A DNA stretch of 63,341 bases, filler included, from Reclinomonas americana ATCC 50394 (taxonomy: Eukaryota), in the NCBI GenBank assembly GCA_048213135.1. It is 6 parts of 5 records of this genome, joined end to end, with 100 filler letters (N's around TTAATTAATTAA, not from the genome) between each part and the next. Parts side by side here need not be neighbours in the genome. Positions count along the whole stretch, not along the records: positions 27,091 to 52,565 come from PS015465.1; 5 more parts are not named here. One strand, 5' to 3'. Under the pieces are notes generated by a model that was not told the DNA's origin, made no database searches, and worked only from the letters and a program-made list of their open reading frames with translations. Both the position numbers and the translations under genes were made by a program. Below are positions 14,310 through 46,648 of this stretch, in pieces. How positions within the stretch are numbered: the first letter of the stretch is position 1; each line of letters begins with the position of its first letter.

Positions 14310-17300
14310 TCAGGCGGCAAACAGGCTAATTATTATGGCGATCGCCACGGTGGTGAGCCACCTGGGGTCGAGCGCTCGTATCGACCAGCCAGCATCTGTG
14401 CGTACATGGGTGCGAGTGAGCTTCAAGTCGACGCGACACGGGCGGAGTGGAACGCAACTGCTGGTGGTGGCCACGCGCAGGTTCTGGCTCGGTATGCTCT
14501 GCCCGAAGCCATTGATAGCACGAACATTGACAATGTACGAACTGCCAGGCGCCTTGTCACTGTACCATGCAATGACAGTAAGCGACAACTTGACAATCGT
14601 CGGCAACACACACACAACCACAAAAGAGTACGCAACCCGACGGTGATTCTCTGCGCCGTCACGACTTCGTACGTGCGCGGCTCCTCGGTGCCATCCTCCC
14701 TCATCACCGTCACAATGTACTTGGTCACGCTGCCGAGACCGGTATATTGTGGTGGCGTCCACGACACCGTAAAGGTCGACGTGGTGGCACTCTCGGTCAC
14801 GAGCGAAGACGGAGCCGCCGGCTCCGCAGCTGCGCACACAGGTGCACTTGTCAGTGAATCGACACGCACATGCAATCTAAAAAAAAAACGCGTCAACTGT
14901 GCGCAACTCATGGTCGACTGTGTGATGGCCGTGCTGAGGATACTGTACGACGAACTCTTGACGGCGAGCACCTGCAGACACAAGCACGGTGAGCGCGCAC
15001 ATCAACGCACTACATATACAAAGGAGCGACGTCGACTCACTTGGAACGTGTATGTCGACTGCGGTTTGAGGTTCTTCACAATGCCACACGGGGAGATGCC
15101 ATTGGCCGTGGCCACACTGCCGAGTGGGCCCGCGTCCAGGAATGCCGTGTCGCCCGGTCGGTACACTTGCCGCATGTACTTGGCGTAGTACACAATGCGA
15201 TACGAGTCGACAGTGGCGGAATCGGGACCCGTCCAGCCAATGGCCACCACATCGCCACCGTAGCCCTTGATTCTCACACCTTGCACTTGTGCCGGCGCTG
15301 CGATGTGAATGCAAAGTGAGAAGACAGGGAGACACACAATAGCCGAAGCGAAACAAACGCACCGTCTTGCAGAGTTGTCGCCTGCTGGAAAAACGCCGAG
15401 CTTTCCTCGCCCCAGCCGACAATGTTGAAGGCGGCCACAGAGAATCGGTACACGGCACCCGGTCGCACCGACACGCTGGCGTTCAGTTGTGTTGCCGTGG
15501 TGCTGACCGGCTGTGGCGAATCGCCCTCAAAGACCTGCGTGCTGACGCGATAGGCCGTGATGCTGCTGGTCCCGATACTCGTCGGTGCCGACCATCGCAC
15601 CGCCAGGGTGGTCATTGTCGGCGCAAAATCTGCCTGCACGTTCACAGGCCGGCCAGGAACTTGCCCTGTTGTGTAACAAAAAAAAATGAGTGGATGAAAC
15701 ATAAATGCACCCCACGACATGCTCAGCGCTTGCACAACAAACCTGTGGTGACTGGATTGCCGTTCAGCGACGTTGAATCCAGTGCAAACTGCGACGGTCG
15801 CGGCGAGACACCGGCGTTGTTCGCCGCTCGAATCTGGAACGAGAAGAAGAATGAGCACGCACTCTCTCCCCTAAAAAGCTCCGCTCCTCCACGCCAACGC
15901 ACGTCAATGTAATACGCCGTCCTGGCTGACAGATCCGACAGCGTGATATTCGTGTACGAGGTGGTGATGGTGGTCGCATTCACCAATTGCTCCGCACGAT
16001 ACATGACGTTGTAGATGGTGATGGGGCCGCCGCCTCCTGTTTCCACCGGCGGATCCCACGTGAGTCGCAGCCTGTCAGCGGTCTTTGCAAAGAGCACTGA
16101 GCGCACGTTGCGCACGTTGCCGGGCACTGCGGCGGCGATGGTGGTGTGAATCTACAGACGTCCACAGACACACATACACACACACATGACGGCAGGGACA
16201 ACAGCTCTCACCAACAATCGGCGACGTGGTCGTCAACGTAATCACCGTGCCATCCCAACCCGTGGAGTACCCGTTGGTGGCTTGCACCTTGAACTGGTAC
16301 TTGGTGTTGCTAAACAAGTTGCTAAACGTCACCGTGCTCACCGACTCAAACTTGGTGGCCGGCGTCGACGACACCTCCAGCGTCTCCCAAATGGTCTCGT
16401 TCACCAGCCGACCGCGCACCACCTCGTACGCGTAGAAACCCGTGTCAAGTGGATACTGAGAGCCCGGCGACGCCGTCGACGACGACTGGATGTTGAACAC
16501 TGCGGTTCCGCTGGTGGTCGCCGCGCTGATTACCACGGGTGCCGGATATGGACCTGCAGCAACAACAGCATGTGAGTGAACAAGTTGGGGCACGCGGCGT
16601 GTGTACGTGGCGCACACTCACCGGCCACTGAATTGGTTGTGAATGTTGTGGCGAGCGACTGCGGGCTCGACTGCAAGCGATTGTTGACCAGGTTGGCCGC
16701 AATCAGCGACACCGAGTACCGGGTGTTCGGCACGAGGCCCGAAACAGTGCCAGAGCGATTCGTTGCGCCAGTGAAGACGGTGATCGAGTCACAGCCGTTT
16801 GAAGAGATAACAATGCGCCACTCTGTGATGAACGTGGCGTCGCCAACCAGTTGTGGATCCGTCCACGAGAGTGCCACCCACACATCCGACACACGGACCA
16901 CGGTTGGCGTTGGTGGCGCCGACGGAGCACTGCCGCTGCTGGCCGTTGTCACCGTTGTGATGCTGGTGGGAATGCTCTGCCCGATAGAGTTGATGGCAAA
17001 CACCCGGATAACATACAGCGTGTTGCTCTGCAGTGCCGTCACCGTGTACGTAGTGGGCGACAGGAATCCGCCCACCGGCGCCTGGAACGACGATCCACCC
17101 GTTGATGTTTCGACAACGAAGCCGGGGCTGAGCAGCGCGGTGCCACCGTACGTCACCGGTTCCTTCCACGACACGGTGAATGTCGTCGGTTGCACATTGT
17201 AAATGGTCACACCGAATGGGGAATCGGGGACGGCGCCTGTGAATGAGAGAGAGAGAGGAAAATGAGCGACATTGCAAGAAGATCACGCACACACGCGCAA

Positions 17301-19628
17301 AGTGGTGCCAACGAAACTCGGCGACGGCAACGTGATGCTGATGGATGAGCTGAATGAGCCGAACCCAAACTCGTTGACGGCGCGAATCTTGTACGAAGGA
17401 GAGTGAGCCAGCGTGGTCTCACGATCGGTGCACGCAACAAGTTCAGTTACCTTGACATCGACAGTGCGACCGCCGACCATATTTGTCACGTCCATGCGCA
17501 TGGGCAGGTCGTTTGTCAGGCCCGTGGACGCGTCAGTGGTAGACAGTGAGACCACCGACTGGCGAGTGAACTCGGCGAAATTGGCGGTGCCGGTGCGGTA
17601 CCAGAACGAGTAGGACGAGATGGTGCCGCCGCCCATGACCACTGGCCGATTGAACAGAACGGAGAACGTGGAGAACGACACGCGAGAAGCCACGAGGTCC
17701 GTGGGCGCATTCGGCAGCGAGGCTGTGGGCGAGTACAAATGAGCATGGACTGGTATGCACAGCGATGACACCATCACCACGAACCGTCCGTCGGCGTGGT
17801 GACAATCATGGTCTGGCGCGAGCCCACACCGAATGCCGTGATCGCAGACACCGCCAGTTCGTAGGCGGTGCCGGGAGCCAGATTGCTGACGAGCACCTGG
17901 CCGCCGGTCGCGGTGACAGTCGGAGCAATACTGACCTCCACTGATTCTGCGCCGCTGGTCACGAGCCGATACCACGCCGTGTAGCTGCTGACCGTCGGTG
18001 TGCCGAGTGTCACCGGCTCCGTCCACAAGAACAGGAGACTCTTGGTGGTGAGCTGCTGCACGTTCAGCGCGGTCGGAAAACCAGCCAGGGAGACTGTGCC
18101 GTGGGGGTGAGCGAGAAGCAAGCGGACGGCGGTCACGAAATACACACGACGCAAACCTGCAGGAACTGTCGCAATCACGAGGGGCGCACTGCCCGGTCCA
18201 AAGTTCGTCGGTTGTGCGTTTCTCGAGTACACCTGGCGAACGAGATCACAGTGAGCGAGTCATGGACAAACAAGAGATTCAAAGGCCAAACAAAAAGGGC
18301 AAGCAACGCACTCGAATGCTGTACGCGGTGTTTGCGCTCGGCAGCGTGATCACTGCCGTGTTCTCGTACGTGGTGGCATCGATGGTGCCGACAACGGTGA
18401 TGCTCGCCGCAATCTCGCGAGTGCCTGCCGTGCTCTGGTTCTGGAATCGCACCTCGTAGAACGGCGAGGTGAGGCCTCCTTGACCGACCAGCAGCGGAGC
18501 AGTCCACGTGAGCTCGATCGAGTTGGACGCGATGCGTCGACTGCTGGTAATTGATGCGGCGGCAGAAGGCACGCCACCAGCCGGCGTGGTCGAGAACGAG
18601 CCGACGTTGGCATCGACACCGGAGCCAGCACCCAGAGTTTGCGCGCGCGCCTGGCACGCAATACAGTTGGACCCACTGACGACTGACTTGGGAGGGCGAC
18701 AAAAAGAAAGACAACGCAACGACCACAGAAAACGACGAGTTCGCAGCGAATCGACACCCCGACACGCCAATGGCGTACCCGCCCGGCACAGTCGCGGTGC
18801 TCGTGACTGCGCAGTCGTCCATGTACCGCTCGCCGGCTCGACTGATCGAAATCGAGTATCGTGTACTGGTGAACGCCGACCCAATCACTACCGGGTCCTG
18901 AATAAACACGGTCACCGACACGTCGGTGATGAAGCGGAAGGAGATCTTTGGTGGCGATGAACGAGCTACAACAAAAAAACCGCAAACCACCACCCAATGT
19001 CAGATGCTGGCGAAGCACGCTCCTCAACACAACACACATACCGACGGCTGTGCGAATCGAGCTGATTACGGTGGACTGGCCGTTTGTGTTGCTGCCGCCG
19101 TCGACCACCTGGTAAATCTGCGAGTCGAGAGTACGCGTGAGCGCAAGGCGGTGATAAAGGAACCGCGCAGAGCACAGCTAGTCACCGTCACGTCGTACAG
19201 TGTGTCACTGAGGAGACCAACGAGTGCGAATCGAGGCTGGGCGCCAAATGGCTGAATGAGATTACCACTGGCGGTCGTGGGCGGATCCGTGCTTCCTGAT
19301 TCTCGATACAAAACCTGTGCGACGACGCACGGCAAAGCATGTGAGAGACGAGCGCGGAGAGGCACGAAAGAAGAGAGCGGAGACGGACCATGTAGTAGGG
19401 CGCCACAGGCTTGCCCCCACCGGTGGACGTCGGCAACTTCCACATCACAGTGAAGCCGCTGTCTGTCACGTCATATACCGACGGCGACGCCAGGACCAAT
19501 GCTGGCGGCTGCAAGGTGGTGAGCGGGATATTGGTCGGCGCAGTGCTGGCGCCCGTCGCCGCCGATGTGCCGGCGGTGTCTTGTGGGGTGACCTACGGCG
19601 ATGATGATGATGAGTGAGAAATCGGGAG

Positions 19629-19676
<48 letters not shown>

Positions 19677-21921
19677 CACTTGCACCACTGCAGAGCTGCC
19701 GGCGACAAATGTCGTGGACTTGATGCGCACGGTAAATGTCTGCGTGGTCAGAAAGGCGGGCTCGGTGGTGGTAAACGTGCCATCTTGCAGCAGGAACTCG
19801 ATGGTGGGCGCCACGGGCACCGACGTGCCGTACAGGTAAGCGTACGACTTGATGCCGTTGATACCGCACAGCACAGGCCGTGTCACGAACAACGTCACAA
19901 AGCCGACACCTTGCGAGACAATCACGGGCGCTACCGTGGAAGCCGACGGGCGAGTCTGCCGTGCAGTTTTCCGTGGTTAGGTGCGCTTCTCTGCTACGAC
20001 TGGAAAAAGATAAATAGAGTACGCACCTGGGCCACGGAAAAGTCCACAGCCACTGCGCCGCAGGTGACGCTGGTGGCCGACAAGCGTGTCGACGACACCT
20101 GGGCGCGCACCGTCGGTCTGCACGACGACGGTCCATTGAGGCCAGTGACAATGTTGGTGATGGTGACCTGGGTCACACTGGCGGTGCTGGCGTCGGAAGC
20201 AAACGAGATGGTCGGTGCTGTGCCTCCCAAGACAGTGCACGACGACAAGTCGATCTTGTAGGGCTCGGAGGTGGACAGCTGGGCACCAAGAATCGTGGGC
20301 CGCGTGATTCGCAGCACCATGGACGACGTCAGTCCGCCCGTCCACGTGCGCACATCCTCCATGGCGCACACAGGCACCGGCCCAGGCGCTGCGACGCAAG
20401 AGAGTGAGATACTATTAAAGGGAGAAGGAGGAGGGCGGGTGGTGTGTAACGAGACTCACCTTGCGAGGCTGTGGTGGTTGCCGCGGTGGCGGTCGACGGA
20501 TACAACACTGGCGATGTCGTCCACGGACCGGCGCCGACCTCGTTGATTGCACAGATGCGAAACAAGTAGGAGACGTCGGGATCCAAGTTCGAGGCCACCA
20601 CAGTGCCGCCCGTGACGAGACCCGTGACCGGGTCGGTGTACAAGGACGTGGCGGTACCAATGCCGCGGAACTGACCGATTTGCGTCGACGCCATCTCCAC
20701 TCCGTAGTACGGGCCAATCAGCGGTCGACCGATACGAATGGGAGCCGACCACGTCAAGCGCACCGACGTCGACGTGATATCAGAGAACACCACAGACGCG
20801 AGCGACGGCGGATCGGGTGTCATGCCTGGCAGAAGAAGAAGTACAAGTACAAGAATTAGACAAACGCACTCACATGTGCTGCGCTCTCCTCTCACGGCAC
20901 AAATGTGACGCACCCGAGCTGGCTGTGGTCACCTGAAGCGAGAAGCTCCACGTGCCATATCCCCACGAGTTGCGTGCACGCACGCGGAACTCGTAGCGCG
21001 TCGATGGCGTCAGATTGGCCACCGTGGCCTGCATGTCGCCCGCACCGCCGGTAAAGTTATCCGACGACAGCGTGCTCGACGACCACGAGTTGTCCTTGGT
21101 GGAGCGCTGCTGCATGACGTAGAACGGCGACACCAGCAGATTGTTGCCCGCGGTCGCCGCCGCTCCAAACAATTGCGGGGCGGTCCACGTGAGAACCACG
21201 CTGCGCGCCAGAATGTACTTGACTTGCAAGGCCGACGGTGCACCAGGTGTGGCTGCACGGCGAGGTGAGCGACGTGAAAGGAGGAAAGAAAGAGAGAGAG
21301 AGACAATGAGAAGAGCGACTCACCAGCAGTGGGATTCTGGACCTCGACAAACGGCGACAGCGGGCCTCGACCGTACAAGTTGACGGCATACACAGCAAAT
21401 CTGTACGTGACGCCCTGCACCAGCGAGTTGCTAAAGGCCGTCAGTGTAATGGCCGTCGTGCTGCTGCTGCCCAGCAGGGTGTCGGTCTTGCGCAGCACGC
21501 CATTCTCCGTAATCTGCACGCCATAGTCGGTGATGGCCGCGTTGCCCGAGTTGAGCGGACTGCTCCACAGTGCGTGTGAGATGAGAGAGTGTGTGTGTGC
21601 GTGGGCAGAGAGAGAGAGCGACGCAACGGGTCCCACACGAGCGCAATCTGATTGTCGGACTCGACTGAGAGGAACTGCGAGGCACCAATGGCCAGAGTCG
21701 CGCGCAAGTTGAGCGGTGCCGCGGGTGACCCATCAGCCACGCTATTGCTCGTCACCACAGTGGTCACAGTGGACGCGCCACTCACACACAGTGCACACAG
21801 CAACAACAGCAGCAGCACCGCAGCGAGAGGCCGCACTGTGTGAAAGAGAGAGAGTCAGACATGTGAAAGAGGAGAGCAAGAGAGAGAGAGACAGTCATCA
21901 CGCACCACGCGGTGTCCTCAT
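14310..21921 (-). CDS. Large secreted, probably GPI-anchored fibronectin type III repeat protein (~15 FN3 domains)
   Basis: Signal peptide MRTPR|VRPLAAVLLLLLLCALCVSG. Repeated PxxP..V.W..P....Y....L.P.T.Y.F.V.A.N..G motifs across many GT-AG-separated exons. C-terminus is TTSNAGWS...WLTTVAIAIIISLFAA-stop with no cytoplasmic tail. Confidence 0.85.
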
Positions 21922-22037: not shown

Positions 22038-24794
22038 ATGCAACGCGCGTCATCGCCGACACTTTCCACAGTGATCAGTCCACGCGCCGCCACTGATCCA
22101 GGTTACACTCTCTCTCTCTCTCTCACACACTCACTCTCTTCTTCACTGTCTCATCTCTGAGCGCCCACAGAGTTCGATGTGGCGCACGTGAGAAGCACCG
22201 TGCGCATGCTTGCGCAGCTCACCGACGACGACGATGATGATNNNNNNNNNNNNNNNNNNNNNNNNNNNNNNNNNNNNNNNNNNNNTTAATTAATTAANNN
22301 NNNNNNNNNNNNNNNNNNNNNNNNNNNNNNNNNNNNNNNNNAGCGTACTTGTACGTGTTTACGGCGTACGCGCATGATCCGACCAACCTCACGGGCCAGA
22401 GTCAGTGCATCGAACTGGGATTCATGCCGTCGGCGCTCGCCACAGACAGCGTGGCGGCTCCGAGCGCTGGTGCGCCGTCGACTGCGGCCAGTGATTTGGG
22501 AGGAGCGATGCCGGCCGAGGCCTATCGTGTGCAGGTACGAGTTTTTTTTTTGTTGTGTGTGTGTGTGTTGTTGTGTGGTGGCAAAGCTGGGATGCTGACC
22601 GTCCGGTGCAGATGTTTCTGCTGTTTGGCACCGATCGGCGAGCGCACACGTTTATCTTGGAGCGTCGGTCGCTGCGCTTTGTGGAGATTGAGCCGCGCGA
22701 GATCACGCCGTGGTTGGGAGACTTGCCAGCCACAGCCGTGTGTGCCGTGGTGACCACGCATTACCCGTGTGCGCATGACCACGAGCGTGGTGATGAGCAT
22801 GGCCACCACCGTCACCAGCATGCAGACAACGCACCGCCACCGCAAAAGGTGTATGCGATCGGTTGTCAGAACGGCCACGTGCGTGTTTGTGTCGTGTGCA
22901 CACGGACACTCAAGTGGAGCGCCGACTGGTTTGCCACCCCTGCATGCAGCGTACTCGTTCATATATTCTCTCACGCTGCTATTCGGCAGGCTTACGTGGG
23001 AGGGACCGGTTTCCACCTTGGAGGTTCTCAGCCCGCTGACCACCGAGTTTGGAGCGGAGCAGCAGACAGACGCCTCAGGCGCCGTCCTCACGCACCCGGC
23101 AGTGGAGGCACTGGCTGCGCAGCGGAAGCAGCAGCAGCAGCAGCAGAACGGTGGCAAGGCTCGTCACGGCGACTGTCCTCGTGCTGCGTTGCTCATCTGC
23201 AGTGCCATGGGCCACTGGCGTGTGCACCAGCTGGACGTAGAACGCGCAGTGCGCGCCACGGCTACCGCACACGCCTCGGCCAATTTGCCAGAGCGATGCG
23301 CGTTGCCGGCCACCTCTCTCTTTCCCGATGCAGGTGCGACGCGCGCATTTTCCCACAGCCCTGCATTGCGCTGCCTCACTTTCTCTGCAGATACGATATT
23401 GTCGCCGAGTGGTACCGAAAGGCACGCCCCGACCGTGGCGCAATTCACACTCGGCACCACTGTCGGCGACGAAGTCGAACACAGAATACGTGGCCTCATC
23501 GGCCGTGTCATTGGTTCGTCGGCATCCGGCGCTTCGCTGTGCATGCCGACACCGCCACCGCCACCACCGCGAACCAGCGACGGATCGCCTTCCGAGGCAC
23601 CATCACCAGTGGCCGCCGGACCGCAGTCGGTTGTCACAGGCGGTGCCTTGTCGCCGATTAGCGTGGGCGAAGGTACCAACTCCGACGACGACGATGACGA
23701 CGACGACGATGATGATCGGAAACGGATGATTGCACTCGGTGCGGACAGCAGCAGCGGTGGAGGTGGCGGCGGAGGCGGCAGTCGCGAGAGTAGCGGCCGA
23801 TTGGACTCAATCATGTGTTGCTGTCGCGTGGAATCACAGTTGCAGGTCTGTACAATACGTGTGTGTAATGTGCTCGTCAGTGTGCCGAGGAATTGAATCG
23901 TGTCGCAGCTGTCGCAGCGAGTGCTGGTCCCGCACGTGACTTCGGCGGTCGGCGATGACGCGGAAGAGGGTCCATTGTGTGCGGCCATTGGCACATACAC
24001 TGGATCGCTGCAACTCCTCTCCACGGTGCGCGTGCCGTGGGCACTGATTCAACGCAGCCGGCAGCACTTCAATTTTGCATTCGAGGTGAGCGTGCGCATG
24101 CGGAGGAGCCACACGCCTTCACCCCCGAATAACTGTGCTCTTGTAGGGTGCGCTGCAGCAGAGTGAAGACGAACTCGTCGGTGCGCTGCCGTGGCAACCC
24201 TCCTCAGTAGCTGTCGTGAATGCACGCTAATTTTTCTCCTGTTTCGCTACAGCGGACACTCCGGCCTTGCTGAGCGACTACCTGGCCGGTCCACTTCCAC
24301 CGCTGGTGGTTCACGTACGAGCACAACTGCAGTTGCCGAGACCAGTGTTTGGCGTGTATCAGATGTTCCCCCGGCGAGAGCAAGATGTGGCGTCGGCCGA
24401 GATGGTGGCCAACTCCAGCTTCGGCGCCCTCTCTGGTGCCTCCGGTGCGCCACTGATCGCCGCCACCCCCGTGCACCCGCGCACACCTGTGAGGCTGACA
24501 ATTGTGTGGCACTCGCAGATCGTGACTGGGACGACAGCGCACTGGCACGCGAGTTGACGTGCACCTTTGTCGTGGTGACCATGGGTTCGGTGCACTTTTT
24601 CAAGGTCTGTTCTCTCGCAAGGGGCGCTCAGAAGGCAAAAAAAGCTCACATGTTATTTGTCGCAGTGGGATCAAGACATGCTGGCGACGCTGTTCTGGGA
24701 GCGCGTCCGCGAGATCCTGGTGGCGAGCGGAGGCCGCGACGACCTGCTCCCGCGGTGCATCCGCGGCAGCATTAGCGGCGATTTCTGCAGCTGA
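22038..24794 (+). CDS. KPTN: Kaptin-like beta-propeller protein (KICSTOR subunit homolog), interrupted by a contig linker
   Basis: QCIELGFMP, MFLLFGTD, AIGCQNGHVRV, EGPVSTL, DSIMCC, IGTYTGSL and VVVTMGSVHFF are colinear with kaptin motifs as I recall them. Stop TGA at 24792-24794. The 5' exons (22038-22241) are tentative because they lie across a linker. Confidence 0.65.
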
Positions 24795-24799
24795 TCGTC

Positions 24800-24872
24800 G
24801 CCTCGTTAGCTCAATCGGTAGAGCATCAGACTTTTAATCTGAGGGTTGGGGGTTCGAGTCCCCCACGTGGCG
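24800..24872 (+). tRNA. tRNA-Lys(UUU)
   Basis: 73-nt cloverleaf GCCTCGT TA GCTC AATCGGTA GAGC A TCAGA CTTTTAA TCTGA GGGTT GGGGG TTCGAGT CCCCC ACGTGGC G. Anticodon TTT, intact A and B boxes, U4:U69 mismatch. Confidence 0.95.
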
Positions 24873-26375: not shown

Positions 26376-26990
26376 TCACTCGGAGTCGACGTCGCTTCCG
26401 GTGACGCTGTCGCTTCCGTCGTCGTCCTCAGTCTCCGACGAGTCCGCCAAGGCTGTGGAGGGAGAAACAAAAAAAGAATCAGGTACTGTTCTGTGTGTAT
26501 TGCTCTTCGCAGGATAATAATGCTTGCACTCACCACCTGCAACAGAGGCCAGGTTGATGGCGGAACTGCCGGGCATGACGATGCGGGCCTGCTGCTCGAC
26601 GAATGCACGAACAAGGTCGAACACTTGTCGAACGAGACGAATGGCCTCGGCGGCCTCGGCTGCCTGGAAACGGTCGGCAGGCGCGGCACCGGCCTCAACG
26701 CGACGGCGCGATGGGTAGCGCGTGGTCGAGTAGTAGCTCTTGACGATGCGGACGCACTCGAGCAACTCGGTGGCGTTCAGTCCGACCGGCGGCTCAATCG
26801 TGAGGCACTCGCGCGCCTGCGTCGTGATCGAGTGGGTGGCGTACACCGGCCGGCCGGCGGCAAACAGAGCCGCCTTCAGGCTCTTCTCGACCACTGTGTG
26901 GAGGAAACACGTGTGAGACGAAACAGCTTCAACATGCGCTACGCTACGTCGCCTACTGTACCTTGGTGGGCCTGGAAGCAGGCATGGGCG
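26376..26990 (-). CDS. HEPN-domain protein, sacsin C-terminal type (3' fragment)
   Basis: ACFQAHQ|.VEKSLKAAL..THSI..YYSTTRYP..AAEAIRLVRQV. Truncated 5' by a contig linker. Confidence 0.7.
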   Translation of the reverse strand, partial: RPCLLPGPPRYSRRRSVAHVEAVSSHTCFLHTVVEKSLKAALFAAGRPVYATHSITTQARECLTIEPPVGLNATELLECVRIVKSYYSTTRYPSRRRVEAGAAPADRFQAAEAAEAIRLVRQVFDLVRAFVEQQARIVMPGSSAINLASVAGGECKHYYPAKSNTHRTVPDSFFVSPSTALADSSETEDDDGSDSVTGSDVDSE

Positions 26991-27090
26991 NNNNNNNNNN
27001 NNNNNNNNNNNNNNNNNNNNNNNNNNNNNNNNNNTTAATTAATTAANNNNNNNNNNNNNNNNNNNNNNNNNNNNNNNNNNNNNNNNNNNN

Positions 27091-34443: not shown

Positions 34444-37400
34444 ATGGAGGTGGACGCCGACCTCTTCTCCTATGATCGCCTGGGATCGGCCTCGAGCATG
34501 CGGCACTCCTCGGGCTCTCGCATCGGCACCTCCTCCTTGTCTTCCTCTTCCTCCTCCTCCACTGCGGCTGCTGCTGCTGCCTCCTCTTCATTAGCCTCCT
34601 CGTCAGCGCGCGATGCACGTGCAGTCACCGTGACACTCGACGGTCAAAAGGTGGACATCCACGCTGATGAGCTNNNNNNNNNNNNNNNNNNNNNNNNNNN
34701 NNNNNNNNNNNNNNNNNNNNNNNNNNNNNNNNNNNNNNNNNNNNNNNNNNNNNNNNNNNNNNNNNNNNNNNNNNNNNNNNNNNNNNNNNNNNNNNNNNNN
34801 NNNNNNNNNNNNNNNNNNNNNNNNNNNNNNNNNNNNNNNNNNNNNNNNNNNNNNNNNNNNNNNNNNNNNNNNNNNNNNNNNNNNNNNNNNNNNNNNNNNN
34901 NNNNNNNNNNNNNNNNNNNNNNNNNNNNNNNNNNNNNNNNNNNNNNNNNNNNNNNNNNNNNNNNNNNNNNNNNNNNNNNNNNNNNNNNNNNNNNNNNNNN
35001 NGGAAACATCGACAGCACCTGTCCCAAGCGAGCGGGAATGTACAGGTCGTCGCCCTGCTGTGCGCTGAGAAACTGCGACTTGGCACGCTTGTACTTTTCC
35101 TCCAAGTAGTACTCGAGACCTGGTCAGGTGAGGGTCAAAAAAACAAAACGATGATGGTGGTGGTAATGATGGGCGTGGCAACGCACCAAGACCGACCCAG
35201 TACATGGGCGGCAGCGAGTTCCTCGTCGGCAGCTGATTGTAGCAGTCGCGCGCCTTCTCCAAAAACGCATTGCGTTTCGTGTCGTCGGCTTCTGCGCCAG
35301 CCTGCTCGACGTAGAACGCCGCCAGCGTGTTGACAATGTTGAACTGATCGGCAGGCCGATCGAGATGATCGTCGGTGTTGAAGGTGGTCTTGCGCGCCGT
35401 CTCTAGAATCTCCACAAACTTGCTCGTGTCGCCGAGCGTGTAGTACGCCAGCGCGTAGTTGAGCCAGATGGGCAACGGAGCGAGGTTCTCCGTCAGCAGC
35501 ACAGTGACCTCGCGAGCGGTCTCCGGCAGCGACAACTGCAACTCCTGCGCAGCGTCAAACGCCGCTGCAATGATGCGGTTGCAGGCGTCATCTCGATTGC
35601 TGCGGTACAGCGTGCCCTACACACACACACACACACACACGCGAGACGAGGTGAGCGGGGGCAGAGGCAGAGAGAGGGAAGAGAGACAACAACTGAACTG
35701 CAAAGCGGATCCAAATGCGCGGTGGCAGCGGGTACCGATGCAACAGGTCGGTGAGCTGATCACACACACGATCGTTGGGGATGTCGCCTGGTGGTGGCAC
35801 GCGGTTGAGTCACTCACACACACACACTCTCTCTCACTGAGTCACACGCAACGAGTGCAATACGCGGCCGCCTTCTCAAGAATGATCTGCACGTTGCTCA
35901 GCGTGCCGTACTTGGGGTTGTTGCCATACATGCACTGCAGAAAGAACAACAACAACAACCACAGGAGAGTGTCACAGAGGTGCAAGTGCAGCCTCGACAT
36001 GGCGCGCACACACACACACACCGCCAGTGTGACAAAGGCCTCAAGTGGGCAGGCGTTTGCCGCAAACATATCCACCAGCTCGCCTGCGTCTTCCACCNNN
36101 NNNNNNNNNNNNNNNNNNNNNNNNNNNNNNNNNNNNNNNNNNNNNNNNNNNNNNNNNNNNNNNNNNNNNNNNNNNNNNNNNNNNNNNNNNNNNNNNNNNN
36201 NNNNNNNNNNNNNNNNNNNNNNNNNNNNNNNNNNNNNNNNNNNNNNNNNNNNNNNNNNNNNNNNNNNNNNNNNNNNNNNNNNNNNNNNNNNNNNNNNNNN
36301 NNNNNNNNNNNNNNNNNNNNNNNNNNNNNNNNNNNNNNNNNNNNNNNNNNNNNNNNNNNNNNNNNNNNNNNNNNNNNNNNNNNNNNNNNNNNNNNNNNNN
36401 NNNNNNNNNNNNNNNNNNNNNNNNNNNNNNNNNNNNNNNNNNNNNNNNNNNNNNNNNNNNNNNNNNNNNNNNNNNNNNNNNNNNNNNNNNNNNNNNNNNN
36501 NNNNNNNNNNNNNNNNNNNNNNNNNNNNNNNNTGCGCCTCTTCACATTGCGCATCCCCTCATCTTTCTCCTCCAGGCTCTCGTGCACTTTACCGAGGGCG
36601 AGTACGACAAGGCGTTTGAGATGTACAAGGAGGCGTTGCGGCTGAACCCGACGGTGCCCGCGAATGTTCGTCTCGGTCTCGGCTACTGCTACTTCCACCA
36701 GAAGCGTGTGGATCGAGCACGCGACTGCTTTGACCGAGTGCTCGCCCTCGACGAGCAGAGTGTGGAGGCGCGTGTGGGCCTGGCGGTGTGCGAGCTGCAG
36801 GACGACAAGCCAGATCGACTCGATCGCGCCCTGAACTTGATTCGCGAAGCGTACCAGCTGAATGGCGATCATTCTGTGGTGCTCAACTACGTGGCCGACC
36901 ACTTGTTCTTCCTCGGGCGTGTCGCAGAGGTTTTGCGTGGAGTGTGGTTCTTATTGCTGTTGCGACTGCGAGCTAAGTATGTGTGTTTGTGTGCAGGCGC
37001 GGCAACTCGCCGAAGTCGCCCTGCACAACACCCGAGTGGTGGAGGTGCAGGCCATGAGCCACTTCATTCTCGCCAAAGTGGCGCACTTGCACAGCGATTT
37101 CGACACTGCCTTTGTACACTATCGCCAGGCGGTCGACAAGTCCAACACGTTTTCACTGGCGCTCTTTGGCCTCGGTCAGATCTACCTGTACCGTGGTGAC
37201 GAAAACAAGGCGTTGGAGCAGTTTGAGAAGGTGCTCGATGCCTATCCCAACAACTACGAGACGCTGAAGGTCCGAACCGGAGACGGCGACAACGAGTGTG
37301 TGTGTGTGAATATGGGGGAAACTTATTACTTGTTGCAGATTCTCGGTTCGCTGTACATGAAGCTCGGACGTGAGGCGGAGGCGTTACAGGTGGTGCAGAA

Positions 37401-40400
37401 GCTCACCTCGGTGGTCACCGACGACCTCGACGGGTGGGTCATGCAGGGGCAACTGTTGGAGCGCGTGAAGCCGAAGACCGCACTGGCTGGTTTGTGTCGA
37501 TGATGCGTAATTCTGCGACCGATTGTGGTTGTGACTGTGACGCCTCCTCAGCATACGAACGCGCCGTGCGTATTGCACGAGACCGGAAATTGGGTTTGAC
37601 TCCCGAAGTGTGGAACAACATTGGCTGCCTGCAGCGCTCATTAGGTCTGATTGCGCTTCTCTTGATATGTGCGTTTGTGTCGCGGAGGGACTCACCTGCT
37701 GTCTTCCCTTTCCAGCGCTGCGCTCCGATTCGGACGCGCAGCACTTCCAGTTTGTGCACCACGATGTGGGCGATGTAGACGATGAGCACATCAACTCGAG
37801 CATGTCGCTGTTGGACCATGCAGAGCGCTCGCATCGTACGGCTCTCCAGTTGACCCTGCGTGCTGCTGATGAAGTGAAGCAGCTCATCGACACCGTCAAC
37901 GAGGCCAGTGACGCCGCTCTCGCTTCGCTGCCCGACATTAATGCTCTAGCGGCCACGCAGGATCGCCTCAAGGAGATGGAAGTTGTGTGTGTGGAGGAGC
38001 TCTCTGCGTTATTTGACGGAGCATGAGACTCATTTTGGCTCTCGCGCACCACAGATCACCATTCGCTACAATATGGCACGACTGATGGAGGACAAGCACC
38101 GCGCCGACGAGGCGCGCGAGATGTATCTGGAGCTGCTGAAGAGCCACCCGTGCTACCTGGACGGTGAGATGCGCGATGTGCTTTATCCGTAGCTAGTCGT
38201 TTCACTCTTTTTTCTCTGGCACAGCATACCTGCGGCTCGGCATCATGGCACGTGACACGGGCAATCACCGGATGGCTGGTCGGTGGTTCTCTGTAGCAGC
38301 ATGTGCGTCGTATTTCCTCCTCTGCAGCACGCGGTCGTTCCACTCACGACTTGCAATGATCCACAGCTATTGCCAAGGACAATCCCGATGTACGCTCCCT
38401 GCAGGGCCAGTTGCACATGATGCGCGAAGAGTGGAGCCTGGCGCAGGGTCACTTTGAGGACATTCTCAACGGCATGAACCAGCGCGACATGATGGCCCTG
38501 CTGTCGCTTGGCAAGATCTTTTACGAGAACTCGTGCATCGATGTGCTCAAGAAGAAGGTCTGTAACTGACAACAATCATCGGTTGCTGCGTGATGCGAGT
38601 GTGTTGCTCATCACTTGGTGGATGCGGTGCCGCAGCACGAGAAATACCGTGCACACGCCGTCAAGTTCTTTGATCGGGCGCTCCTTGTGGATCCCGACAA
38701 TGTGTACGCCGCCAATGCGCTCGGTGTGCTGTTGGCCGACGGTGGCTTCCTGGACGACGCACGTGAGATCTTCCAGAAGGTTTGCTGGAGAGTGTACTCC
38801 ATAGCGCTGTTTGTGTGTTGTTGTTTTGACACGAGACACGCACACAGGTGCGCGAGGGCGGCAAGATCATCCCCGAGGTGCTGCTGAATCTGGCGCACAT
38901 TGACGTGTCGTACAAGCGGTACGCCGACGCCATCAAGTTGGTACGCTACTGCTCTATTCCCCCTCCTTTCCTCGAATCCGGTTGCAACTTATCTGTTGTG
39001 GCAGTACGAGACATGCTTGAAGGTATCGCACAACTCGGACGTGGAAATCTTGAAGTACTTGGCCCGCGCCCACTACTGTGCCGGTCACCTGGAAACGGCG
39101 CTGTCGACGCTGCAAAAGGTCGCCCACCTGCGACCGGAGGACCTGCAGACGTGGTTCGACATTGCACTGATCCAGGAGCAAATGTGTGTGGACAAGGTGC
39201 GCTCGATCATCACCAGCGCCGCAACCGTCATCAAGATCCGCGACATTATGACCTCGGCACACCAGTTGCGTTTGGTTTTTCCCCTTTGCTCCGCGTCGCC
39301 AGCATCTCTGATAGGTGTGAATGGCCGTGGGGCGCAGCATCTTCCGCTTTGTGGAACGCAAGGCGGAGGAGTTGAAGGACAATCCGAGTCGCGACGCCGC
39401 GGTGGTGGGTGCGTACTGGACCGAACGTCACACGTCGTTGCATCAGCTGGCGAAGAACAAGTCGCACGAATGTGCCGAGTGGCGCGGCAAGTTGGAGAAA
39501 ATGGTGGACTCGGTGCGTCGACAGGAGGAGGAGGCCAAGGCGCAGCGAGACTCCAAGCGCGAGGAGCTGGAAGCGCGTCTGCAGCAGATGCGAGCCCGTG
39601 AGGTTTGTGCGTCTTTATTCACCTATTTTTGTGATTTGCACTCATCATTCGCTGCAGGAGGAGGAAAAGCAGCGGCAGATTGCCGCCGAAGAGGAGATGC
39701 GACGACGAGCTGAAGCCGATCGAGAGCGCTTCCGCCAGGTGCAGAGCACGTGGAAGTCGACCATCATCAAGGATGGTGAGTGGAGGGGGTCAGTGAGACG
39801 ATTGTGTGTGTGTGTGGGCGAGATAATGACACGCGTGTCTAATGTTGCTTGCCAACACAGACGACAGCGATGGCTCTGGCGGCGGCAAGAAGAAGAAGAA
39901 GAAGAGCAGTGCAGGTGGAGCTCCGCGAGCGCGAGGCTCGGCCGGTGGCGGTGGTGGTGGCAAGAAGGCGCCACGCAAGCGCAAGGTGGACGAAGAGGAG
40001 GAGGAAGAAGAGGAAGAGGAGGAAGACGACGGTCAGATTGACTGGCGACACGGCTCCAAGAAGGCCAAGGGCAAGAAGAAGAAGGCGGCCGCCAAGTCGG
40101 CCGACAAGAAAAAGAAGAAGAAGAAGAGCCGAGCGGCCAGGTGAGTGGATGGGAGGGTGGGATGGAGAGCGATTTCCCTGCATTCTCACCGTCAACGCAA
40201 CAGCGATGAGGAGGACGAGGAGGAGGAGGAAGGAGACGAGGACATGAGTGAGGAGGCCGAGGACTCGGGCGGCAGCGACTCGGACAGCCCGAAGAAGCGC
40301 AAGAACAAGGTTGGCAAGCGCAAGATTCGCGGCAAGCGACCACGCGACGAGGCCGACGAGGTCGAGACCGAGGACAGGCTGTCGGATGTGGGCGAGGAGG

Positions 40401-41782: not shown

Positions 41783-44700
41783 ATGTTTAGCCCACGCCGC
41801 GCTGGTCGCAATGAGGGCGTGTTTGAGGAGTTTGAGCAGTTGCAAGTGGAGATTGGTAATGATGGCGGCCCGGCGCCTGCTGGAGGAAGCGCGCAAGCCG
41901 ACAGTGATGCAGTTGCGTTTGCGTTACAAAATGCGCGCGTTCGTGTGTGTGTCTCCCTCTCCGCTCACCACCGCGTGCGCAGGATGGAAGCCGTGAGAAG
42001 GACCACTGGACGTCCACCAAGAGCATTCGTGCCTCGTGGACTCCAGAGGAGAGGACAGTGCGTCATCACACAGACACTGTATGATGACGCCTCTGTATTG
42101 ATGCTGGCGATGTGATGCAGTTGTACGAGCAAGCGGGCACGTACTTGGGTGATGCGCGTGCGAGTCGCTCACCGTTCCATTTGACCACGCCCACAGCTCT
42201 CAAGTGCGTCTCTTCTTCTTTGTATGTATGCTTGCGTCAATTCAAACTCACTTGGCATGCCACTGGCAGATGGTACAAGTTCTATCACAAGAGTTGCGAG
42301 AGAACTGCGTGTGTGTATGTGCTGCTAAATGCTTCTGAACACGGGGAGGGTTTCGGATGGGTGTGCAGTTTGGGTACAGATTGTGTTCGCAGCCGATGTG
42401 GTCGCTCTTATGGTGCTCGGCGCCTTTGAGGCCCCCGCGCCTGCCGAGCTGCCAAATTGGGTTTGTGATGTTGGAGGATGTGCCGTGTTCCTCGTACATG
42501 GCTCATTCCCTCCGGTCGATGCAGCTGGCTGCACTTCTCAAGTTCTTTTTCCTGTCAGTTCTCCTGTGCCGTGTGGTGCTCGACTACGTAACACTTGGAC
42601 GCAAGGAGTTCTTGGGGTGCGCGCCTTTCACCACGACAAGACGTATTCTCCTCCTCTGATCGTCTGTGTGCCGGCTTTGCATGAGAACAGGAGACCATGG
42701 CTCGTGGTCATGGCGGTGGCGGTGCCGTTCAACATTATCGGCTTGTTGATCTCATGGGCCATTCTTGGCGAGGGTTGGCTCTGGCTGCGCCTCTTCCGGT
42801 GTCTGTATCTCATCGAGTCATCGCACGTCACGCGTGCCACATTCATGAACTTGCTGCGAACCATCCCCGACATTCTCGACGTGCTGTTTTGCGTCGGTCT
42901 CGTGCACCTCGTGCGTTGTGGCTGCACCACTCTGCTACACAACACGACTTCCCTTCTTATGTGTGCGCGCGCAGAGCTTTGTGCTGTTTTGCATGATCTT
43001 CTTCGAGGCCAGGTGAGAGCTCTCAACTCCCATCGACTGAGTTTGCAGTCGGCTGATCACTGTATTCTTGCACGATTAGCAATCAAGGATGTCTGATGTT
43101 TGCCGGCTTTTGGGACTCCTGGTTCAACATGCTGGTGACCCTCACCACAGCGAACTTTCCAGAATATCCTTGCTGTCACCCTTGTTGTTGTTGTTGTCGA
43201 TGTTCCTCTGTTGCTGTGGTTTCCTTGACTGACGCCTCGCCGCGCTGTGTACTATCATGATGCCAGCATACGACGACAAGTGCGTCACACATTTGTGTCT
43301 GTGCCTTGTTTTGTCGCCCTGTACCGACAGGCTTTTGTTCCCGCAGCCGATGGAATGTCTTGATCTTTATCGCCTTCCTCATCATCTGCTTGTACATGTT
43401 GATGGCCCTCGGTACGCGACGCTTCCGTCACGAGCTGTCACGCTCCTGATGATCTGTCCCTAAAACAGTGTGCTTCCTTGACAGTGCTTGCGTCTGTCTA
43501 CTCGCGCTACCGTGAGCATGCAGGACGTGCCGGATCCCGCATCATCTACTGGAAGACTGCTGCGCTGTCCATGGCCTTTGATCTGCTGTGCACGGTTCGC
43601 ACAATGCCCGTCACGTCGCCGGCAAATAGCGCAAGTGCCCGGCAACACGATCAACAGGGTCAACAAGATGGTATGTAGCTGAGTTCGATGATGCGCGTGG
43701 CATGCACTCATCTCTTGTATCGGCGTTGCCCAGGCACCGAGAATGACACCACATCGCCGGAAATGACACCGGCTGCCGGTAGCAGTGCTGCTGCGCTAGT
43801 TGGAGCTGGCACGGGCGCGTCGGGTTCGGGACTCATGTCACCACAGAGTGCTGCCTCGGCCGGCGACCTGGAAGACGCACAGTCCGTGGCGCCGGTGGAG
43901 GTCATCGACTATGTTACCTTCCGTAACGCGATGATTGTTGTCCGCTCGCACTACCCGCTGGAGAAGATCGACATCACATTTAGCGCGCTCAACCGCAGCG
44001 GCAACGGCTTTTTGAATATCCTTTGTGCGCAGTGCACTTCAGTGCAAGGCAGTGTGTGCGTGCATTCGTGACTTGTTGACTCCTTAACGTGATGGCCGTG
44101 TGTACCTCGCGAGGAGTTTGCCGAGTTCCTGGAGGTGTTGAGCTACAAGGTCAAGTCGGCGTGGGAGAGCCAGACGTTCTTCGAGTGGCTCTTCCGATGC
44201 ATCTACCACACCAAGGGAAATCAGGCATTCATCCGCTTCATCAAGTCGCAGTTGCGTGCATGCGGTCAAGTTGAGCGCTGGCCGATTAAGCAGGTGGTGT
44301 TCAACCAGCTTCCCACAGGTGGTTCGACGCCATTGTCGACGTGTTCCTGGTGGCCTACACCATCAATCTGATGGTCAGTGCTCACTACGCCACATCCAAC
44401 CTGGACTATCAGTGTGGTGTCACCACCAAGGAGCCCGAGGCCATTGTACTGCAGAACATTCTCGGTGGGACTCCCATTATCTGTGTTGCGCGTTCTTTGT
44501 NNNNNNNNNNNNNNNNNNNNNNNNNNNNNNNNNNNNNNNNNNNNNNNNNNNNNNNNNNNNNNNNNNNNNNNNNNNNNNNNNNNNNNNNNNNNNNNNNNNN
44601 NNNNNNNNNNNNNNNNNNNNNNNNNNNNNNNNNNNNNNNNNNNNNNNNNNNNNNNNNNNNNNNNNNNNNNNNNNNNNNNNNNNNNNNNNNNNNNNNNNNN

Positions 44701-46648
44701 NNNNNNNNNNNNNNNNNNNNNNNNNNNNNNNNNNNNNNNNNNNNNNNNNNNNNNNNNNNNNNNNNNNNNNNNNNCGACATGCTGACAGACGCGCGTGGTG
44801 CAGAGCACGCATTCACTGCCATTTACACGTTGGAACTGTTGTTACGTCTGTATGCCACGGGATTCCGCCGAGCGGTCCGCAACCTGTGGTTCTGGTTCGT
44901 CCACACTTTCCCTCGTATCATTGCACGCACGTCCGTTCTCAGATAGTTGTTGGTGTTGTCGGTGTACAGCTTTGATTTGTTCTTGCTGACGGCCATCTAC
45001 GCTGGTACGTTTTGTGGTGCTCTTTCCACTTGTCCTCTCGCGAGCTGCTGACTGATGGTGCGTGTTTGCTGGCAGGTATTTTCGCGTCCATTTTCACAAC
45101 CGGTGCGTCCCTCTCACTCCATCTCCTTGCTATTTTACCAAACGCTGATTGCATACTTGGTCGCGTAGGTGCTACCATTCGCCGCGCCATTCAGGCCCTC
45201 CGTGTCGTCCGTCTGTTCCGCTTGCTGGTCCACGTGCCGCGGTACGTACGTCGCTCACGCATGTGATGGAAAATGTGAGAGGTGTTGATTTTCGTGTTGG
45301 TGCGCAGCTTCTACCGCATCATCTCGTCCTTTGTCAGCATTCTCACCAACCTGGGNNNNNNNNNNNNNNNNNNNNACCGTATGGCGCCGTCGTGTTTGTT
45401 GCGTCGCCTCGCTCCGCATGTGGAAATGGTGGTTTCGCGCCTCATGTCTTGTCGCAGGGTGTATACTATGCCTACGCCATTATCGGCATTGGCAGTTACG
45501 CTCACATCGTTCTCCATGTTTCTCGTCCGCTGGCTTATTAGTTAACACGCTCTTCTTTTCTGCAGTCTTTGGTGGACTGATTTACGAAGTGTGTCGCCAC
45601 AGCCACCGTCGTCTCGCTTGCACCGTCTCACCGATAGTGATCGCAGGGCAATCCGGCCCTGACGCCCGACAACCCATTCGTGCAAGCCAAGTACTTCTCG
45701 AACAACATGAATGACTTGCCGTCTGCTCTTGGTGCGTCAGGCGTCTTGCCGTTGCGTTTGCTCTTCCTATTTTGCGCACTCACTGATTTGTTTGTGTGAT
45801 CAGTTGTTCTCTTCGAGCTCCAAGTCGTACGTTTACACGTCGAGAAGAAGACTTGCCAGCGTAGTGACGTCGCTCACATCCATCCGCGTATATATAGGTC
45901 AATAACTGGCAGGTCATTGTGGCCGGCTATGTGGCCGTGACGAACCGCGCTGCACGAATCTACTTTATCATCTGGTGGCTCATCATGGTGGTGGTATTCA
46001 TCAAGTTGCGTCTCCTGCCTGCGTTCACATTACTGTTGTCATCGTCACTCAACTCTTCTGTGCGCCCTCCAGTGTGCTGATTGCCTTCATTCTCGAGGTG
46101 AGTGCTGCTGGTGTCTTTCGAAGCCGGCGAGTTGCCGTCGTTTGACTCTATGTGTGTGCGCGTGTGCAGTCGTACGGAAGAGAATACGAGAAATACGTGA
46201 CGCGCGAACGAGCTCGACTGGAGGTCGATCCCACGCTGTCGAGTGCCTCTGCACAGGACTCAATCCTCGAGCGCATCCAGTCGTCATATGCAATGCTGGC
46301 GCTTGGGCACACAGAAGGAGTCACGGGTGTCGGTGGAGATGCCACGCCTAAACGCGTACGGTGCGTACACATGTGCTCTGCAAGTTCACACACCAGCACA
46401 GCGATGAGTGCTGACCACACGCGATGCTTGCCGGCAGTCGCTTCTCGATCACGCGCAAGGGCTCCAACTCGGCCGAGTTGCTGGAGTCCGTGTCTGACAT
46501 GAAAGTGCAGTTGCGTTCTCCAGCAGGCGTGCATGCAGCTCACCGATGCTTAATTTTGTGTACTTGGCACGTACGCAGGTGCGTACCACTGGACCAGCTG
46601 CCGTCTCTGGCGCCAAAGAAGAACAGCGATCGCTCCGACACCGATTGA
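41783..46648 (+). CDS. TPCN: Two-pore channel (TPC), with two U12-type AT-AC introns
   Basis: S4-I LRLFRCLYL. Filter I LTTANFPD|IMMPAY. EF-hand-like linker NRSGNGFLTREEF. S4-II LRVVRLFRLL. Filter II LFELQVVNNWQV. S6-II NVLIAFILE-like segment. Stop TGA at 46646-46648. Confidence 0.92.
43164..43252 (+). other. U12-type (minor spliceosome) AT-AC intron 1
   Basis: 5' site ATATCCTT, branch TTCCTTGAC (43221-43229), 3' end GTAC. Removal restores TANFPD-IMMPAY. Confidence 0.93.
44016..44105 (+). other. U12-type (minor spliceosome) AT-AC intron 2
   Basis: 5' site ATATCCTTT, branch TCCTTAAC (44081-44088), 3' end GTAC. Removal restores GNGFL-T-REEFAEFL. Confidence 0.93.

Follow-up and report, generated by a model that had tools for sequence, protein, structure and literature searches.

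A probable U12-type AT-AC intron within the first selectivity filter of a two-pore channel gene

Here we describe, in a stretch of DNA of 63,341 bases that was analysed as a whole (the window), a segment at 43164-43252 on the plus strand that is very probably a genuine U12-type AT-AC intron in a two-pore channel (TPC) gene. The segment, hereafter intron 1, is 89 nt long, lies in phase 2 and breaks the Asp codon of selectivity filter I as GA|T. It is one of two such introns in the gene; the other, intron 2, occupies 44016-44105 on the same strand, is 90 nt long and lies in phase 1. The finding is sound yet not unprecedented, since minor introns are an already known class, and it rests on the splice signals, the reading frame and the protein that the spliced exons would encode.

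Results

The signals of intron 1 follow the U12 consensus, which is given in PMC6259924 as ATATCCTTT for the donor, TTCCTTRAC for the branch site and YAS for the 3' end. Its 5' splice site, ATATCCTT at 43164-43171 (+), matches the consensus at eight of eight positions, and its branch-site motif, TTCCTTGAC at 43221-43229 (+), at nine of nine, with 43228 as the branch A. The intron closes with TAC at 43250-43252 (+), read directly, as the last three letters of a terminal GTGTAC hexamer (43247-52). A preliminary description of this DNA had proposed an AT-AC intron of this length, with these exon edges and a U12 signature; sequence and coordinates agree with it, as do the donor, the branch site and the AT-AC ends. 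It had also put the branch A about 24 nt from the 3' end and called that spacing longer than usual, which is borne out by a distance of 24 nt from 43228 to the last intron base, against an optimum of 11-13 nt given in the review PMC3584512. Apart from one AC only 5 nt away, no AC or AG comes between the branch A and this TAC end. There is no AG dinucleotide anywhere in the 89 nt, and translation carried in frame through the unspliced intron runs into a TGA stop. The 3' regions of both AT-AC introns are GC-rich and mixed, without a pyrimidine tract, and U12 introns are described as typically lacking such a tract before their 3' end (Turunen et al. 2013, PMC3584512). That the major (U2-type) spliceosome excises this AT-AC intron is extremely unlikely: U2-type AT-AC introns do exist, as the intron class table of PMC7367187 records, but the extended ATATCCTT donor and the TTCCTTGAC branch site are the signature of U12, not of U2.

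What excision of intron 1 would do to the protein bears on the choice of boundaries. The exon that encodes the pore helix and filter I (43080-43163, +) reads ...NMLVTLTTANFP followed by GA; its translation is ...NQGCLMFAGFWDSWFNMLVTLTTANFP with GA as the final letters, and its nucleotides terminate ...ACC ACA GCG AAC TTT CCA GA (43163). Across the intron lies a micro-exon of 27 nt (43253-43279, +), which comprises T, IMMPAYDD and AA, opens at 43253 with T ATC ATG ATG CCA GCA TAC GAC GAC (IMMPAYDD) and has the U12 intron on one flank and a U2-type GT-AG intron (43280-43346, +; GTGCGT...CGCAG, 67 nt) on the other. With intron 1 excised, the junction becomes ...TTANFP-D|IMMPAY.... We enumerated every GT-AG, GC-AG and AT-AC boundary pair around the intron that keeps the frame open (n=15), and 43164/43252 alone among them yields ...NFPDIMMPAYDD (P-D-I-M-M-P-A-Y). 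Being the sole boundary pair that gives P-D-[IV]-M-x-P-A-Y, it upholds the earlier claim that excision restores the conserved TPC filter I. For the junction test, three exons were joined, 43080-43163, 43253-43279 (27 nt) and 43347-43411; the resulting N-F-P-D|I-M-M-P-A-Y-D-D-N|R-W-N-V-L-I-F-I-A-F aligns without gaps to residues 273-306 of human TPC2, with 16 of 34 positions identical by hand count.

The same enumeration speaks to the alternative that what is removed here is a GT-AG (or GC-AG) intron such as 43175-43266, excised by the major spliceosome, and that the U12-like motifs are coincidental. Nine in-frame pairs of that kind exist around intron 1 and the U2-type donors of the TPC gene are degenerate, which give this alternative some footing. 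All nine of the 15 pairs, however, end at 43266, using a single AG at 43265-66, and all nine lose I-M-M-P from a motif that human TPC2 and plant TPC conserve. Their donors, GTCACC, GTTGTT, GTCGAT and GTTCCT, are unlike any used elsewhere in the gene, and one gene with two composite U12 signals, both perfect, has no counterpart among 548 random sequences (described below). We therefore consider excision of a GT-AG or GC-AG intron very unlikely and retain 43164-43252 as the intron.

The other introns resolved in the gene, all of them short and of the GT-AG type, provide the setting for this comparison. Five GT-AG introns lie around the two AT-AC introns; they measure 63-73 nt, have YAG acceptors and use the donors GTGCGT, GTGAGA, GTGCGT, GTACGC and GTATGT, the fifth of them beginning at 43671. 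A further U2-type intron (45827-45897, +; GTACGT...ATATAG, 71 nt) is positioned directly 5' of filter II, where it falls between Q-V and V-N-N-W. It lies about five codons upstream of the equivalent of U12 intron 1, and the intron position is therefore not common to the two repeats. GTTGCG, an unusual major-type donor, is the apparent 5' splice site at both 44251 and 46005 (+); at these two places no other donor preserves the frame into WFDAIV... and NVLIAFILE, respectively. Given that the U2-type donors are loose and that GTTGCG is used twice, weak GT donors are not to be dismissed on strength alone. The looseness of the major donors, set against AT-AC donors that are both perfect over eight bases, is the usual contrast between the two intron classes.

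Intron 2 repeats the arrangement. Its donor is again ATATCCTT (44016-23, with eight consensus bases matched), its branch motif CTCCTTAAC (44080-88) matches eight of nine consensus positions with the branch A at 44087, and it too terminates in GTGTAC, 18 nt from the branch A to the end. In both introns, no AC or AG that is at least 8 nt past the branch A precedes the proposed end. Intron 2 is located in the linker that connects one channel repeat to the other, and its excision gives ...ALNRSGNGFL-T|REEFAEFLEVL, so that it breaks an EF-hand-like loop, NRSGNGFL-T|REEF. Measured against what we take to be the EF-hand loop pattern, the spliced product agrees at 12 of 13 positions, position 1 being N and not D. 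The in-frame GT-AG alternatives for intron 2 would each add 6 to 19 residues to this loop, and their acceptors fall in GAG-rich coding sequence.

How rarely such signals arise in DNA of this composition was assessed over the window. RTATCCTT occurs at two sites on both strands of the 63,341 bases, against 0.47 expected, and at least two copies were present in 9 of 100 shuffles; both sites are the donors of introns 1 and 2, in one gene and on its coding strand. TTCCTTRAC also has two sites in the window, against 0.31 expected, with at least two copies in 4 of 100 shuffles. When the signals were combined in a composite scan of both strands (donor RTATCCT, branch motif, and AC or AG at 8-35 nt), there were two matches, solely the introns that start at the 43164 and 44016 donors, while 548 first-order Markov random sequences with matching composition held not even one match. 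A branch-like motif within 170 nt accompanied none of the 15 other RTATCC sites. A relaxed scan of the window also returned weak candidates at 20957-21118, 50488-50543 and 53506-53680, which we rejected, their donors and branch motifs being degenerate. Another exact copy of TTCCTTGAC stands at 43474-43482 (+), 2 nt before the AG of a GT-AG intron (43412-43484, donor GTACGC); it is too near that AG to function as a U12 branch site and may be a matter of chance or a relic.

The gene itself is, judging from its translated exons, a two-pore channel: it has two repeats, TPC filters and, in the query with the filter-II/S6 exon, TPC-only matches in the PDB. It spans approximately 42115-46350 (+), its start and end being tentative, and includes assembly gaps at 44501-44774 and 45356-45375. 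The exons of repeat I (42.3-43.5 kb) and repeat II (44.3-46.1 kb) lie on the same strand in consistent frames. Filter I reads LVTLTTANFPD|I and filter II ELQV|VNNWQVI, and the plant TPC sequences given in PMC9693241 are LLFTTSNNPDV for pore loop 1 and NLLVMGNWQVW for filter 2. The exon that carries filter II (VNNWQV) and IIS6 (45898-46004, +; VNNWQVIVAGY...) matches TPC structures only, all four of its PDB matches being TPCs (TPC3 6v1q, E 1.5e-4; TPC2 8ouo and 6nq0, 0.002; TPC1 6c96, 0.013). The open frame with the IIS2 exon (44776-44943, +) has a match to Ion_trans in Pfam (E 7e-6; 25.9 bits, with a cutoff of 25) and, in the PDB, to Nav, Cav and TPC3 structures. The S3-S5 exon falls among Ion_trans clusters of the ESM Atlas (score 0.92, 21 of 30 matches) and has weak BK-channel matches only in the PDB.

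Most single-exon searches were without a match because the exons are short (27 to ~280 nt) and the protein divergent. The 27-aa filter-I exon alone had no PDB match at E up to 10, and a Pfam scan of 23 frames of the TPC gene found Ion_trans in one. Protein homologue searches returned 18 candidates for 42689-42910 and one for 43057-43176, none of them scored, and a metagenome search for related loci found no relative. Two kinds of match were set aside: the sole representative-protein match for a single-exon query was a repeat protein unrelated to channels, and the metagenome loci L001-L003, found with the junction pattern ACNGCNAAYTTYCCNGARTATCCTT, were coincidental matches in DNA that was not channel sequence and was partly AT-rich.

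Could the gene be a pseudogene, or the segment be retained, leaving the channel truncated at filter I? Protein and metagenome searches did not find a close homologue for comparison, a point in its favour, but between roughly 42.1 and 46.3 kb every exon under examination remains open and the splice junctions are consistent; the S4-like segments, S6 and the two filters are all intact, and the AT-AC introns carry perfect signals. We hold this possibility to be highly unlikely. It is exceedingly improbable that the segment arose through misassembly or as foreign DNA inserted into the coding sequence: the contigs are joined by N44-TTAATTAATTAA-N44 linkers and there are many gaps, but the nearest linker or gap is more than 1.2 kb from intron 1, and the boundaries of the intron are exact to the base for both frame and motif.

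On the reading that 43164-43252 is a U12-type intron, its removal would proceed as follows. The U11/U12 di-snRNP, which is described as recognising donor and branch site (PMC3584512), would bind first, U11 pairing with ATATCCTT and U12 with TTCCTTGAC, the branch A being bulged; the predicted pairing targets are UCCUUGAC for U12 and AUAUCCUU for U6atac/U11. The U4atac/U6atac.U5 particle would then displace U11 and catalyse both transesterifications. The cut would fall after the first usable AC past the branch, the 3' site being set by its distance from the branch without a pyrimidine tract, and splicing of intron 1 would unite GA|T as the Asp codon of T-T-A-N-F-P-D-I-M-M-P-A-Y.

From the sequence, we infer that the intron is actually spliced and that U11, U12, U4atac and U6atac snRNPs are present in the organism. 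With two textbook U12-type introns, the organism, a GC-rich eukaryote, very probably retains a minor spliceosome, and it is the second AT-AC intron in the TPC gene that strengthens the case for a working one. An Rfam scan of the 63-kb window found no snRNA genes at E up to 1, and genes for minor-specific proteins are likewise absent from it; the only match in the window to reach the gathering threshold is a tRNA gene (24800-24872, +; 72 bits).

Several other features of the window were recorded. Its coding regions have a GC content of about 55-61%. It contains five identical linkers of the form given above (22242-22341, 26991-27090, 52566-52665, 56189-56288 and 60909-61008), which place stops in six frames, and because its parts are joined in this way, gene neighbourhood across the linkers is unreliable. 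Further runs of N measure 20-822 bases, and two of them are within the TPC gene. Pfam matches mark an RBM39-like splicing factor linker (9828-10856, +), a divergent N-myristoyltransferase (11548-13195, -), a HEPN domain (26379-26990, -), tetratricopeptide (TPR) repeats (36534-37500, +) and an NT-C2 domain with a long coiled-coil frame after it (51286-56187, +). The N-myristoyltransferase exon has distant PDB matches only, and a protein homologue search with that region gave 230 candidates, none of them scored. At 14400-21750 (-), ten open frames match fibronectin type III (PF00041), which suggests a gene for a giant fn3-repeat protein. Leucine-rich repeat (LRR) proteins are also encoded in the window.

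Discussion

The practical consequence of these introns concerns annotation. It is plausible, as the preliminary description had it, that the organism is a protist and that predictors confined to GT-AG introns break the TPC gene, and an annotation built on such introns would truncate or mis-join it at the selectivity filter itself. Beyond this, the two AT-AC introns are strong indirect evidence of a minor spliceosome in a short-intron eukaryote. Should a branch spacing of 18-24 nt prove to hold genome-wide, it would mean that this lineage has relaxed a rule that is regarded as strict in animals. The finding would be of wider interest if the lineage were one thought to be without minor splicing, or if the intron position were common to the TPCs of distant eukaryotes.

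Conserved exons of both the TPC and the N-myristoyltransferase are without a near homologue in the searches made, and for this reason the lineage may be one without an annotated close relative. A broader proposal joins this to minor introns that are biased towards AT-AC and long in their spacing, and to a filter-I intron that is ancient in TPCs; taken as a whole, we regard that proposal as rather unlikely. If the filter-I intron were indeed ancient, the association of the channel superfamily with minor introns would predate the duplication from two to four repeats. In the literature that was searched, no TPC gene, At4g03560 included, is described as having a minor intron. The supplementary text of three catalogues of minor introns (PMC6717393, PMC10639083 and PMC11347168) does not list TPCN1, TPCN2 or TPC1 either, but this text is possibly incomplete, so that the absence carries little weight.

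Compared with the U12 AT-AC introns reviewed in PMC3584512, those described here are alike in having an extended donor, a TTCCTTRAC branch site and AT-AC ends, and in occurring among major introns. They differ in their spacing of 24 and 18 nt, and in that the gene holds two minor introns, both AT-AC. The longer spacing is the one departure from the U12 rule and is consistent between introns 1 and 2; both distances exceed the optimum of 11-13 nt, but they fall within the region from -55 to -5 that intronIC scans (PMC7367187).

Minor introns are already known in a range of microbial eukaryotes: Larue and Roy (2023, PMC10639083) list Physarum, Pelomyxa, Protostelium and Acanthamoeba, and Phytophthora, Saprolegnia, Blastocystis and Cyanophora as well. 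The situation here resembles theirs, as it is set out in that paper: the genome is of a short-intron, unicellular type, and its minor-intron signals are canonical. In Blastocystis, 77% of minor introns are AT-AC, as both introns are here, whereas its introns have a median of 39 bp, against about 90 nt for the two introns of the TPC gene (PMC10639083).

As a channel, the predicted protein is very divergent overall from human TPC2, mouse TPC1 (6c96), zebrafish TPC3 (6v1q) and plant TPC1, while its most characteristic elements are shared with one or another of them. Filter II of human TPC2 (6nq0/8ouo), VNNWQV, is identical here, and the TTSNNPDV of plant TPC1 filter I has its counterpart in T-T-A-N-F-P-D-I-M-M-P-A-Y. 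Plant TPCs carry EF-hands in the linker between repeats (PMC9693241), where the EF-hand-like loop broken by intron 2 is also found.

A close parallel to the introns themselves comes from other voltage-gated channels. Minor introns are reported to be enriched in voltage-gated channel genes, with at least one in every human Nav and Cav alpha gene (PMC6865273), and an AT-AC U12 intron in S1 of domain I is described as conserved across animal Nav and Cav genes (PMC6259924). That intron, like the two in the TPC gene, is a minor AT-AC intron in a member of the voltage-gated cation channel superfamily. It differs from them in its location, which is S1 in Nav and Cav genes but filter I (the S5-S6 pore loop) and the inter-repeat linker here. 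Nav and Cav are, moreover, four-repeat channels, whereas the gene described here encodes a two-repeat TPC. The two AT-AC introns echo the way in which Nav and Cav genes are enriched in minor introns, and they offer a test case for the age of that association.
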